Shown here: positions 31,031 to 33,641 of the stretch, one piece after another
Position numbering within the stretch: the first letter of the stretch is position 1
Layout: each line of letters opens with the position of its first letter
Source of the DNA: a virus
Taxonomy: Duplodnaviria > Heunggongvirae > Uroviricota > Caudoviricetes
IMG/VR virus record: IMGVR_UViG_2541047745_000011
Coordinates: 1-43,359 of that record
DNA: 43,359 nucleotides
Direction: 5' to 3' (one strand)
Position numbers and translations under genes: made by a program
The notes under the pieces: generated by a model
What the model was told of the DNA's origin: nothing
What the model saw: the letters and a program-made list of their open reading frames with translations, nothing else
Databases searched by the model: none

Positions 31031-31180
31031 GACCTTTCTCCTTCTGCATCAGCTTCACCTTTTCCAACTCAGCCCGGAATCGACCAGGCTGCTTGAAGCT
31101 GGACAGGAAGCGATCACGTAGTATGTGTTTGTGAATTTTGTCCTGGTAAGGACTGAGTTGTTTTGTCATAATGACTCCTG

Positions 31181-31256
31181 TGGATTGATCCAGTAATGAC
31201 CTCAGAATTCCATCTGGATTTGTTCAGAACGCTCGGTTGCCGCCGGGCGTTTTTTA
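31181..31256 (+). ncRNA. oop: OOP antisense RNA (lambda-type) with promoter -10 CATAAT at 31167-31172
   Basis: ...GATTGATCCAGTAATGACCTCAGAA.TCCATCTGGATTTGTTCAGAACGCTCGGTTGCCGCCGGGCGTTTTTTATT is near-identical to lambda oop incl. terminator; overlaps the cII 3' end. Confidence 0.75.
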
Positions 31257-31495
31257 TTGGTGAGAATCGAAGCAACTTGTCGTGCCAATCGAGCCATATC
31301 GTCGTCAACGACACCCCATTCAAGAACAGCAAGCAGCATTGAGAACTTTGGAATCCAGTCCCTCTTCCACCTGCTGATCTGCGACTTATCAACTCCCACA
31401 GCTTCCGCTGTCTTCTCAGTTCCAAGCATTGCGATTTTGTTAAGCAACGCACTCTCGATTCGTAGAGCCTCGTTGCGTTTGTTTGCACGAACCAT
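31202..31495 (-). CDS. cII: CII transcriptional activator (lambda-type)
   Basis: [96 protein letters not shown] essentially identical to lambda CII; start at internal Met of track ORF. Confidence 0.9.
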
Positions 31496-31505
31496 ATGTA
31501 AGTAT
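31473..31505 (+). promoter_or_regulatory. PRE-type promoter with CII-binding TTGC-N6-TTGC repeat
   Basis: TTGCGTTTGTTTGC at 31473-31486 followed by ACGAACCATATGTAAGTAT, as in the lambda y region; directed toward cI. Confidence 0.6.
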
Positions 31506-31574
31506 TTCCTTAGATAACAATTGATTGAATGCATGCAAATAAATGCATACACCATAGGTGTGGTTTAATTTGAT

Positions 31575-31606
31575 GCCCTTTTTCAGGGCTGGAATGTGTA
31601 AGAGCG
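31575..31606 (-). promoter_or_regulatory. nutR (boxA CGCTCTTACACATTCCA, boxB GCCCTGAAAAAGGGC)
   Basis: Minus-strand sequence matches lambda nutR boxA/boxB; located between cro-like gene and cII. Confidence 0.75.
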
Positions 31607-31614
31607 TTGATAAC

Positions 31615-31845
31615 TTAAGCAGCCATTAATTCAGGCCAGATGCTTTCCCAATCAACCGGATGAAGGTCTTTGCGAGTCACTTCACCATTGCTGAACTTCT
31701 CAATCAGAACACAAAGTGCTGCGCCCAATTCATGATTACGGCTAAGTGCTTTCCTCAAATAGCCGATAGAAGTTCCGCACTTGGTGGCAAATTCTCTCTG
31801 CTCTTCCAGTGAAAGGGAGTTCAGATACAAGCGGAGTTCTTCCAT
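31615..31845 (-). CDS. Cro-like regulator (first gene of rightward early operon)
   Basis: 76-aa ORF with GGAGAT RBS, divergent from cI across the operator region; not similar to lambda Cro, function assigned by position. Confidence 0.5.
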   Translation of the reverse strand: MEELRLYLNSLSLEEQREFATKCGTSIGYLRKALSRNHELGAALCVLIEKFSNGEVTRKDLHPVDWESIWPELMAA

Positions 31846-31880
31846 TTGCTATCTCCTTCCCGTTGTTGAATAAGGTGAGT

Positions 31881-31934
31881 TTACCTGCAGGTAAAAAACA
31901 AATCAATACCCACAGGTTATTTACCGATAGGTAA
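31881..31934. promoter_or_regulatory. OR operator region: palindromes TTACCTGCAGGTAA and TTACCGATAGGTAA between cro-like and cI genes
   Basis: Perfect 14-bp palindrome at 31881-31894 and related site at 31921-31934 in the 108-bp divergent intergenic region. Confidence 0.6.
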
Positions 31935-31953
31935 TCAAAGATAGAATTAAATC

Positions 31954-32640
31954 ATGGATAAATACGAACAAAGACGACTAAGGCTGATAGAGATAAGAGA
32001 CCGATTCTGTAATGGAAAGGCCTCAGAGTTGGCTCGTCGAATAGAAAGGGAACCATCATACGTTTCCAGAATGCTGTATCCGGAAGGAAAAAGCGGAAAA
32101 AAACGCATTGCTGACGATATGATGGAACTAATTGAAAAATCTTTTAATCTCCCACGCGGATGGATGGACATGCTTGCAGATAGCAAAGTTGGATCTGCAG
32201 ACCATCTTGAGTTTGCGGGTAACGTTCGTGCGGGTTTTGTTCCGGTAATTGGTGAAGCCGTTTTGGGAGTTGATGGCTCAGTGGATATGATTGAATTCAG
32301 ATCCGGTTGGTTAAGCATCTACAGTGGCGATAAAGATGCTTACGGTCTGAAGGTTAAGGGTGACAGCATGTGGCCAAGGATTCAGTCAGGAGAATATGTT
32401 GTTATTGAACCAAATACGCCAGTACATCCAGGTGATGAAGTCTTTGTAAGGACCAAAGATGGTCATAACATGATAAAGATCATGAACAAAACAAGAGACG
32501 GAGACTATCAGTTTAGTAGTATAAACAGCGATCACCGTCCAATCACTCTTCCTGTTGAAGAAGTTGATAAAATGCATTTTGTTTCAGCTATTGTGAAACA
32601 CACTAGGTACGTAGACCAGGACGATCTGCCAAAATTTTGA
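31954..32640 (+). CDS. CI-type prophage repressor (N-terminal HTH, C-terminal LexA/S24-like autocleavage domain)
   Basis: 228 aa; C-terminal domain with GDSM (Ser nucleophile) and downstream Lys; divergent from cro-like gene. Confidence 0.85.
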   Translation: MDKYEQRRLRLIEIRDRFCNGKASELARRIEREPSYVSRMLYPEGKSGKKRIADDMMELIEKSFNLPRGWMDMLADSKVGSADHLEFAGNVRAGFVPVIGEAVLGVDGSVDMIEFRSGWLSIYSGDKDAYGLKVKGDSMWPRIQSGEYVVIEPNTPVHPGDEVFVRTKDGHNMIKIMNKTRDGDYQFSSINSDHRPITLPVEEVDKMHFVSAIVKHTRYVDQDDLPKF

Positions 32641-32951
32641 GGATAAAGCAGCAAATGTTTATACCAGGTATAGTGGTCGCTGTTGTAATCATCTGCTTCA
32701 TATGGGCAAAGTTATCTCCTGTAAGCTCTAAGCATACAGCTGAACTCATGAAGAAGAAGCATCTTATACATGAGGCAGAAACGATAATTAAGAAGTTCAA
32801 AGGCATGTCATATGACGACATGTCATCAGATCAGATTGCTATGTATAAATGCGCCATTGAGCGTCTTGACTACTTAAACGGACTCAAACCCAAACACACC
32901 CCGGTAGAATCAAAATTGCCGCAATGGCCAAGCAATCCAAATAGCTTCTGA
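32637..32951 (+). CDS. Membrane protein of unknown function, translationally coupled to cI (rex/sieB-equivalent position)
   Basis: Start overlaps cI stop (ATGA); N-terminal hydrophobic helix IPGIVVAVVIICFIWA; followed by a strong terminator. Confidence 0.5.
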   Translation: MRIKQQMFIPGIVVAVVIICFIWAKLSPVSSKHTAELMKKKHLIHEAETIIKKFKGMSYDDMSSDQIAMYKCAIERLDYLNGLKPKHTPVESKLPQWPSNPNSF

Positions 32952-32962
32952 CATCTCCTTTC

Positions 32963-32986
32963 AGCCCGCAAAGCGGGCTTTTTTAT
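32963..32986 (+). terminator. Rho-independent terminator ending the cI operon
   Basis: AGCCCGC-AAA-GCGGGCT followed by TTTTTTA. Confidence 0.7.
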
Positions 32987-33004
32987 ATCAATCCAAAAAA
33001 TTAA

Positions 33005-33087
33005 TTACCTGAAAATTCAAACAGGTAAACTCTCACACTAATTTTATTTACCTGCAGGTATAGACAACAGTTTTACCTGTAGGTATA
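33005..33087. promoter_or_regulatory. OL operator / PL promoter region with TTACCTGCAGGTAT and TTACCTGTAGGTAT sites
   Basis: Same half-sites as OR (33048-33061 and 33074-33087) plus split site TACCTG-N10-CAGGTA at 33005-33026; upstream of nutL and N. Confidence 0.55.
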
Positions 33088-33128
33088 TTTTAAGCCATCA
33101 GCAGGACGCACTAACCACCATGAAGGTG

Positions 33129-33160
33129 ATGCTCTTAAAAATTAAGCCCTGAAGAAGGGC
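33129..33160 (+). promoter_or_regulatory. nutL (boxA GCTCTTAAAAATTAA, boxB GCCCTGAAGAAGGGC)
   Basis: Matches lambda nutL boxA/boxB. Confidence 0.8.
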
Positions 33161-33317
33161 AGCATTCAAAGCAGAAGGCTTTGGTGTGTGTGATACGAAA
33201 CGAAGCATTGGCCGGAAGTGCGAATCCGGATTAGCTGCCAATGTGCCATTGCGGGGTGTTTTCGTTCAGGACTACGACTCCCACACACAACCAAAGCTAA
33301 CTGACAGGAGAATCCAG

Positions 33318-33641
33318 ATGGATGCACAAACACGCCGCCGCGAACGTCGCGCAGAGAAACAGGCTCAATGGAAAGCAGCAAATCCCCTGTTGGTTGGGGT
33401 AAGCGCAAAACCAGTTAACCGCCCTATTCTCTCGCTGAATCGCAAACCGAAATCACGAGTAGAAAGCGCACTAAATCCGATAGACCTTACAGTGCTGGCT
33501 GAATACCACAAACAGATTGAAAGCAACCTGCAACGTATTGAGCGCAAGAATCAGCGCACATGGTACAGCAAGCCTGGCGAACGCGGCATAACATGCAGAG
33601 GACGCCAGAAAATTAAAGGTAAATCTATATCACTTATTTAG
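33318..33641 (+). CDS. N: N antitermination protein (lambda-type)
   Basis: [105 protein letters not shown] nearly identical to lambda N; start at internal Met of track ORF. Confidence 0.9.

Follow-up and report, generated by a model that had tools for sequence, protein, structure and literature searches.

An mEp043-type immunity region between λ-type arms in a P22-like phage

We describe here the immunity region of a Caudoviricetes genome of 43,359 nucleotides (IMG/VR record IMGVR_UViG_2541047745_000011), hereafter called the window; all coordinates are those of the whole window, whose plus strand corresponds to the leftward direction of λ. We conclude with high confidence that this immunity region is lambdoid, complete and of the mEp043 type, and that it most likely works like the λ switch. 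It consists of a cassette of 1,489 bp (31607-33095), which holds a cro-like gene, the right operators (OR), the cI repressor gene, a small open reading frame (ORF) and the left operators with their promoter (OL/PL), placed between two λ-type arms that carry N and nutL on one side, and nutR, cII, PRE and the oop antisense RNA on the other. The layout of a lambdoid switch is present, with divergent cI and cro genes, shared palindromic operators overlapping PR and PRM, and a second set of operators at PL, and all ORFs of the region are intact (Table 1).

The cassette is of the mEp043 immunity type

When the region 31100-33700 was compared to phage records by megablast, mEp043 came out on top, with 77% coverage and 97.2% identity. 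Along 31597-33196, 45 to 50 positions out of 50 were identical to mEp043 in each 50-bp window, and identity dropped sharply in the cII segment. By tblastn, the repressor was 98.2% identical to mEp043 cI over 227 aa; the next named phage repressors were those of the H-19B type (49.3%) and of the 933W/24B type (48.8%), and no classical type was closer. The published qPCR primers for mEp043 cI (PMC3442831) match exactly at 32150-32170 and 32216-32235, with 0 mismatches. In most copies of the cassette, the cro-like protein has 100% identity to its mEp043 counterpart. All ten half-sites of the canonical operators are identical to those of mEp043, and the central bases differ at 4 of the 5 canonical sites. 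The mEp043 records carry no operator annotation, and JQ182734 marks the equivalent site as a putative PL.

The region therefore has the attributes of the mEp043 type in its sequence, namely an essentially identical repressor and like operator half-sites and Cro. It does not belong to the H-19B or 933W immunity types, with 49% repressor identity, a divergent N-terminal region, other operators and no TACC-N4-GGT there. According to PMC3442831, mEp043 forms an immunity group of its own, separate from λ, HK022, phi80 and the other phages of that study. In the literature, the mEp phages are described as separate immunity groups. Nineteen lambdoid immunity groups were defined by Kameyama 1999, as cited in PMC11893012 and PMC9836094; the number of the mEp043 group was not found in the literature searched.

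The first-pass annotation, made from the sequence alone, had seen in this cassette a distinct immunity specificity. It does differ from λ, 434, H-19B and 933W, but it is the mEp043 cassette and not a new one: the specificity is non-λ and real, and already known, having been experimentally defined at the phenotype level in mEp043. An exact match of the operators to a well-known immunity type had been named as an outcome that would speak against the distinct specificity; this is nearly what we found, the half-sites being those of mEp043 and the centres differing at the four sites mentioned. This P22-like phage is thus assigned to the mEp043 immunity group, and is predicted to be homoimmune with mEp043, as well as with some 1% of the E. 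coli strains sequenced.

Table 1. Features of the immunity region, in window coordinates
Feature	Position	Strand	Remarks
DUF2740 ORF	31023-31169	-	first in region order, then oop, cII, nutR
oop antisense RNA	31180-31256	+	overlaps the 3' end of cII; collinear with λ 38675-38599
cII, λ type	31202-31495	-	97 aa; Pfam Phage_CII, E=1.7e-48
CII-binding site, TTGC-N6-TTGC	31473-31486	+	TTGCGTTTGTTTGC, at the -35 of PRE, which points toward cro and cI
nutR	31575-31606	-	boxA CGCTCTTA (31599-31606); boxB GCCCTGAAAAAGGGC (31575-31589)
cro-like gene	31615-31845	-	76 aa, all-helical helix-turn-helix (HTH) type; divergent from cI across OR; unrelated to λ Cro
cI-cro divergent control region	between 31845 and 31954		108 bp
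PR candidate	31878-31906	-	TTGATT (31906-31901), 17 nt, TAAACT (31883-31878); read from sequence; overlaps OR1, abuts OR2
OR1	31881-31894		TTACCTGCAGGTAA; perfect palindrome; covers PR spacer and -10
OR2	31906-31919		ATACCCACAGGTTA; 25 bp centre to centre from OR1; about -41 from the PRM start
OR3	31921-31934		TTACCGATAGGTAA; overlaps PRM -35; 15 bp from OR2
PRM candidate	31920-31947	+	TTTACC-16-TAGAAT; promoter scan 9/12; 6 nt, then the cI ATG
cI repressor gene	31954-32640	+	228 aa; N-terminal HTH and C-terminal S24 autopeptidase domain
Small ORF	32655-32951	+	98 aa from ATG (104 aa from TTG 32637); N-terminal hydrophobic helix; rexAB position, co-transcribed with cI
Intrinsic terminator of the cI-orf operon	32963-32979	+	7-pair stem (6 GC) and T run
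OL/PL region	33005-33097		between terminator and nutL
Split palindrome, TTACCTG-N10-CAGGTAA	33005-33028		TTACCTGAAAATTCAAACAGGTAA; possible non-canonical OL3
OL2	33048-33061		TTACCTGCAGGTAT; adjoins PL -35 and shares its last base
PL	33061-33089	+	TAGACA-17-TATATT; best promoter match in the region, 10/12; start near 33097 (ATCAGCAGG, λ PL +1 sequence)
OL1	33073-33086		TTACCTGTAGGTAT; in PL spacer and -10; 25 bp from OL2
nutL	33130-33160	+	boxA TGCTCTTA (33130-33137; λ CGCTCTTA); boxB GCCCTGAAGAAGGGC (33146-33160)
N antiterminator gene, λ type	33318-33641	+	107 aa; Pfam N36, E=1.5e-26

Two λ-type arms in a P22-like phage

Alignment with λ by blastn gave two collinear arms. The first (33096-33641, with the PL start, nutL and N) matches λ 35583-35037 at 96.5% identity, and the second (31162-31606, with nutR, cII, PRE and oop) matches λ 38693-38249 at 98.0%; in the same search, no match to λ was found for the 1,489 bp in between, cro-like gene included. 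Homology to λ begins at the PL start sequence, around 33097, in the left arm; in the right arm it begins 8 nt past the stop codon of the cro-like gene (31606), and ends around 31162, a few bases into the gene replacing O.

The flanks had been called λ-identical. They are essentially λ, and closely rather than distantly related to it on alignment, but identity is not complete: N shares 105 of its 107 residues with λ N, CII 96 of 97 (A76S), nutL boxA has one substitution and oop 3 mismatches out of 77 nt. The CII-binding site, also put down as λ sequence, holds without reserve, since the PRE region that includes TTGCGTTTGTTTGC has 0 mismatches over 38 nt to λ 38343-38380. The repressor, the cro-like gene and the operators are non-λ, as had been proposed: neither λ DNA match (31607-33095) nor repressor identity (19% to λ CI) places the cassette in the λ immunity type. 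The P22-type virion background was confirmed too: the half of the window that encodes the virion is P22-like, with the Lederbergvirus vB_EcoP-720R6, CUS-3, Kapi1 and Sf101 as best matches.

By sequence, the λ-type N antitermination module is complete, with N and its arginine-rich boxB-binding peptide, and boxA and boxB at both nut sites. The differences between N and λ N are S94R and P105S, and codons 1-93 are the same at every nucleotide; the gene is λ nucleotide for nucleotide over 33318-33598, and its last 43 nt have 8 mismatches. An extra mosaic junction is seen in this 3' end of N (around 33599-33641), which continues into sequence 99.3% identical to vB_EcoP-720R6. A 167-aa ORF (33634-34137, minus strand) convergent with N, whose stop codon it overlaps by 8 nt, occupies the place of λ sieB and is common to vB_EcoP-720R6 and to an IMG/VR viral contig discussed below (L030). 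It belongs to phrog_1244 (unknown function), has Cys pairs near its C-terminus (CAQC...CHRC), and gave no match in Pfam or PADLOC; E. coli genome JNE131328 has instead an Nmad5-family gene after N, on the N strand.

The boxB of nutL is that of λ. At the first base of nutL boxA, C, T or G is found among cassette copies (loci L001-L064), λ having C and the window T, and nutR boxA is nearly always CGCTCTTA among these copies. From boxA to boxB, nutR has 0 mismatches over 32 nt to λ 38250-38281. The λ CII/PRE module is present as well, with CII and with a promoter that runs antisense to cro and has the TTGC-N6-TTGC motif at its -35; this motif is kept in all close copies of the cassette. Within oop, a terminator-like hairpin of 12 pairs followed by a T run is found at 31226-31253. 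Since λ homology stops around 31162, the oop promoter has a non-λ -35 region. An Rfam search of 30500-34500 at E<=1 gave only two sub-threshold chance matches, and assigned no family to oop or to the nut sites.

Beyond this arm, cII and the replication gene are separated by the DUF2740 ORF. It matches phrog_1913, labelled 'tail protein'; this label looks like a mis-annotation, because the ORF sits in the early-right operon. Inside the O-like replication gene (30131-31030), iteron-like direct repeats GTGGTAATTTGCTGGTAATCTGCTGGTAC are found at 30543-30643 as two copies at 94% and partial copies, and are probably the replication origin.

The operators and their conservation

Five sites of 14 bp share the consensus TTACC-N4-GGTA(A/T), three in the cI-cro gap and two over PL. 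The exact OR1 sequence occurs once in the window, and variants of it are found at OR3, OL2 and OL1. When up to 3 mismatches were allowed, TTACCTGCAGGTAA gave 7 matches, against 1.43 expected, and the core TACC-N4-GGTW gave 12 strand-hits, against 0.84 expected; neither count was reached in any of 100 shuffles. Among the 7 distinct TACC-N4-GGTW sites, 5 lie in the two promoter/control regions. This enrichment bears out the non-λ operators that had been proposed.

We also aligned the distinct sequences of both regions, 13 for OR and 25 for OL; among them are relatives with heavily diverged intergenic DNA and a cI of only 78-85% identity. At OR, none of the 30 half-site columns was variable, against 11 of 12 columns in the centres and 49 of 66 in the other intergenic positions. 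At OL, the corresponding values were 1 of 30, 14 of 22 and 35 of 60. Taken together, 1 of 60 half-site columns varied, versus 84 of 126 other intergenic columns (Fisher p ~1e-19). Judged by this footprint, the operators are under clear purifying selection, which is stronger evidence for them than motif enrichment. The operator centres appear not to be contacted. The consensus TTACC-N4-GGTA(A/T) with non-contacted centres is a modest addition for the mEp043 type, and appears unannotated in the public records consulted.

Conservation of the putative recognition region of the repressor, REPSY[VI]SRMLY, is confined to the subgroup with these operators. Relatives that have the same C-terminal domain and another N-terminal domain (the H-19B type, and Erwinia, Pantoea and Citrobacter prophages) have 17-bp sites of the form TTTA[T/G]C-N5-G[A/C]TAAA and no TACC-N4-GGT. 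Operator specificity thus tracks the N-terminal domain, as is expected for repressors of this class.

Upstream of OL2, about 38 bp from its centre, operator half-sites recur 14 nt apart instead of 4, i.e. one helical turn more. Both arms of this split palindrome are kept in relatives with 78-85% cI identity, and its A/T-rich inner spacer varies. Within the window it is not significant by chance alone, and a consistent equivalent was sought in the H-19B-type (N5-operator) relatives and none was found. We consider it rather unlikely, on these sequence data, that it would be a genuine third OL operator with canonical half-sites. Were it one, the repressors of this subgroup would be expected to bind in a non-standard way, for instance as two dimers on one half-site each, or with the site as an anchor for an OL-OR loop; to our knowledge, no such mode has been described for lambdoid repressors. 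Alternatively, its right arm and the bases downstream (CAGGTAAACTC) resemble the -10 region of PR, and could be a minor promoter.

The repressor, the cro-like gene and the accessory ORF

The C-terminal domain of the repressor matches Pfam Peptidase_S24 (PF00717) at residues 103-204 (E=1.4e-17). Ser138 (GDSM) is invariant in the family, and Lys175 (MIKI) is invariant in the 12 non-λ members and nearly so when λ CI is included. The identity of 19% to λ CI given above was measured in this family alignment, in which λ Ala111-Gly112 aligns with Leu104-Gly105, within a kept [LM]-G pair; cleavage of the repressor probably takes place at this Leu-Gly. No statement that the 933W repressor is cut at a Leu-Gly bond was found in the texts searched. 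For the N-terminal domain, there was no Pfam HTH match, and residues 1-78 match phrog_5736 'transcriptional regulator' (E=1e-22). A first profile search against the PDB was partly circular, λ CI being in the alignment, and was repeated without λ. With λ excluded, the N-terminal domain matched PDB 5d50 'Repressor' (E=1.3e-4) and the S24 domain had no PDB match, so that S24 membership rests on Pfam and the conserved dyad. A phmmer search of the PDB with CI alone gave no match.

Pfam gave a single match for the cro-like protein, to YdaS_toxin (E=8e-6), and one copy bears the RefSeq label 'YdaS family helix-turn-helix protein'. The 76-aa divergent gene might then be a YdaS-like toxin-antitoxin component, and the locus a repressor with a toxin-antitoxin-like module. 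We hold this to be extremely improbable: the Pfam score is under the cut-off (26 versus 30 bits), and the gene sits in the canonical place of cro, where three shared operators separate it from the divergent cI and nutR and cII follow it. Moreover, its closest solved structures, PDB 8co2 and 8c7k, are named 'antirepressor protein Cro' (phmmer, E ~3e-10 over 70 residues), phrog_35, which it matches at E=7.5e-16, is in the transcription-regulation category, and the gene co-varies with cI (84-89% identity where cI has 83-85%). A literature search on the codes 8C7K and 8CO2 returned chemistry papers only. We keep to a cro gene of the mEp043-type switch.

The small ORF following cI matches phrog_10450, of unknown function (E=1e-55), and neither Pfam nor PADLOC gave a match. 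It is 96-100% conserved with the cassette; in the relatives whose cI has 78-85% identity, it is either replaced or shares just 34-43% of its residues.

Distribution of the cassette and of its flanks

The 1,489-bp cassette was found in 52 of 5,426 complete E. coli genomes, with 97.4-99.9% identity, always chromosomal and single-copy. The full hybrid, with the λ-type cII, was recovered as one collinear blastn piece in, among others, JNE131328 (99.0%), Z1323HEC0010 and 24AR0142 (97.5%). The RefSeq annotation of JNE131328 has the same gene order: DnaB-like helicase, replication protein, DUF2740, λ CII family, transcriptional regulator, S24 peptidase and N. About 35 close copies were found in IMG/VR, and among them is a 37-kb viral contig (L030) whose seven tested proteins all have 100% identity to those of the window, and which is therefore the same phage.

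In every one of these close copies N is of the λ type (89-100%), and so are nutR and the boxB of nutL wherever they were found, nutL not being recovered in L035, L036 and L059. The λ-type nutR is kept whatever the type of cII. By contrast, cII is of the λ type only in L030, L032, L033, L049 and L062, and in most others it is about 49% identical and P22 C1-like. Because N and the nut sites accompany all close copies, the unit kept together is N, nutL, OL, cI, OR, cro and nutR, and cII is swapped often. Such a conserved block from N to nutR fits the co-transfer of cI and cro in lambdoid phages that is described in PMC9836094. What had been taken for a swap of the cassette into λ flanks is thus correct in that the region is a mosaic with λ-type flanks in a P22-like phage, but N and both nut sites accompany the cassette, the variable neighbour being cII. 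The PL start sequence CATCAGCAGG and PL are kept even in relatives without λ-type N and nut sites (L055, L056, L058, L060 and L063).

These data bear on two other explanations. The cassette might be a new, unseen immunity specificity, resulting from a recent swap into a λ backbone. It has no λ match, outside mEp043 its nearest named phage repressors are only about 49% identical, and operators are absent from the annotation of mEp043. We nevertheless find this very improbable, given that mEp043 has the same cI (98.2%), the same Cro in most copies (100%) and the same operator half-sites, and represents an experimentally defined immunity group (PMC3442831), and given that the cassette is present in the 52 genomes of E. 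coli and in about 35 contigs of IMG/VR. The hybrid is neither unique nor demonstrably recent, because it recurs in full, with 1-2.5% divergence, in independent genomes.

Instead of a working switch, the region might also be what is left of a decayed or cryptic prophage, or a chimera made in assembly; many E. coli prophages are defective, and mis-assembly can produce mosaic junctions. This too has very little probability in our view: genes are all intact, purifying selection on the operators is clear, a full P22-like virion is encoded in the rest of the window, and the same collinear arrangement is found as a single blastn piece in JNE131328, Z1323HEC0010 and 24AR0142, and in the five IMG/VR loci with λ-type cII. 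We thus retain an mEp043-type immunity region that is most likely in working order. It matters little beyond annotation, and is a clean textbook case of lambdoid modular mosaicism.

How the switch would work

The two pairs OR1-OR2 and OL1-OL2 have the same spacing, 25 bp centre to centre, near the 24 bp of λ. No Shine-Dalgarno is present in the sequence before the cI ATG, which follows the PRM -10 by 6 nt, and a leaderless cI mRNA is therefore implied. The same leaderless arrangement is that of λ PRM.

In a lysogen, the 228-aa CI is predicted to bind as a dimer to the 14-bp operators. Occupancy of OR1 and OR2 would block PR, and that of OL1 and OL2 would block PL. CI at OR2 probably activates PRM, from which the leaderless cI mRNA and the small membrane-protein ORF would be expressed, and OR3, over the PRM -35, makes negative autoregulation possible. 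Upon DNA damage, the repressor would cut itself through its S24 domain (Ser138/Lys175) under stimulation by RecA, with Leu104-Gly105 as the most likely bond; PR and PL would then be free, and the 76-aa Cro may act on the same operators. The λ-type N made from PL is expected to act at the λ-type nutL and nutR flanking the cassette, and the λ-type CII at λ PRE, which would read back through cro into cI.

The mosaic junctions lie at the PL start and 8 nt past the cro stop. Each regulator is kept in the segment type of its target because of this placement, with CI, Cro and their operators inside, and N with boxB and CII with PRE outside. Since regulator and target are in the same segment type, such cassettes therefore recombine freely.

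Several points weigh against such a λ-like operation. There are only two canonical OL sites, the third being an odd split palindrome. The distance between OR2 and OR3 is 15 bp, against 23 bp in λ, and as these sites are so close the pattern of cooperativity may differ from that of λ; for the related 933W repressor, binding to adjacent sites is reported to be non-cooperative (PMC3317979). The PR candidate has only 8 of 12 consensus positions, which is under the threshold of the promoter scan, and it was not found by the scan; its assignment is inferred from the sequence. The cleavage site is ambiguous, as Ala88-Gly89 and Ala93-Gly94 are also present in the repressor. Finally, all function is inferred for this exact phage, whether binding, cooperativity, PRM activation, cleavage site or promoter start points.

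Comparison with known systems

The region is like λ in gene order, divergent PR and PRM, tripartite OR, accessory gene(s) co-transcribed with cI, a PL start at the same nucleotide sequence and a leaderless cI start 6 nt past the -10. It differs by its CI, its unrelated Cro, its 14-bp operators, where those of λ have 17 bp, and by the lack of rexAB; in addition, λ has a third OL site in the place of the split palindrome.

Phage 434 and λ imm434 share the architecture, and the junctions around PL-OL and between cro and nutR follow the classical pattern of immunity regions, as in λ imm434. The flanks of the window match 434 and λ imm434 at 95.8-97.5%, in the N and cII arms only. No relationship exists between the repressors, the Cro proteins or the operators, the last being ACAA-N6-TTGT in 434 and TTACC-N4-GGTAA in the window.

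Outside mEp043, the nearest named repressors are the CI proteins of the Stx phages H-19B and 933W (49.3% and 48.8%), with the same S24 domain. The H-19B type has the 17-bp N5 operators given above, the OR sites of 24B/933W differ again, and neither has TACC-N4-GGT. For 933W, three OR and two OL sites are described in PMC3317979, and its two OL sites parallel the two canonical OL sites of the window.

The closest system is mEp043 itself (JQ182734, NC_019706 and PV340537; genus Aguilavirus; GenBank 2012), which shares cro, OR, cI, the small ORF, the terminator, the split palindrome, OL/PL, nutL, nutR and most of N, with 96-100% identity in 50-bp windows. It differs by its cII, annotated as similar to the ST64T/P22 C1 protein and about 49% identical to the CII of the window, by another nutR-cII spacer and by an indel-rich N leader. 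The virion module of mEp043 is that of another genus, and the module of the window is Lederbergvirus-like.

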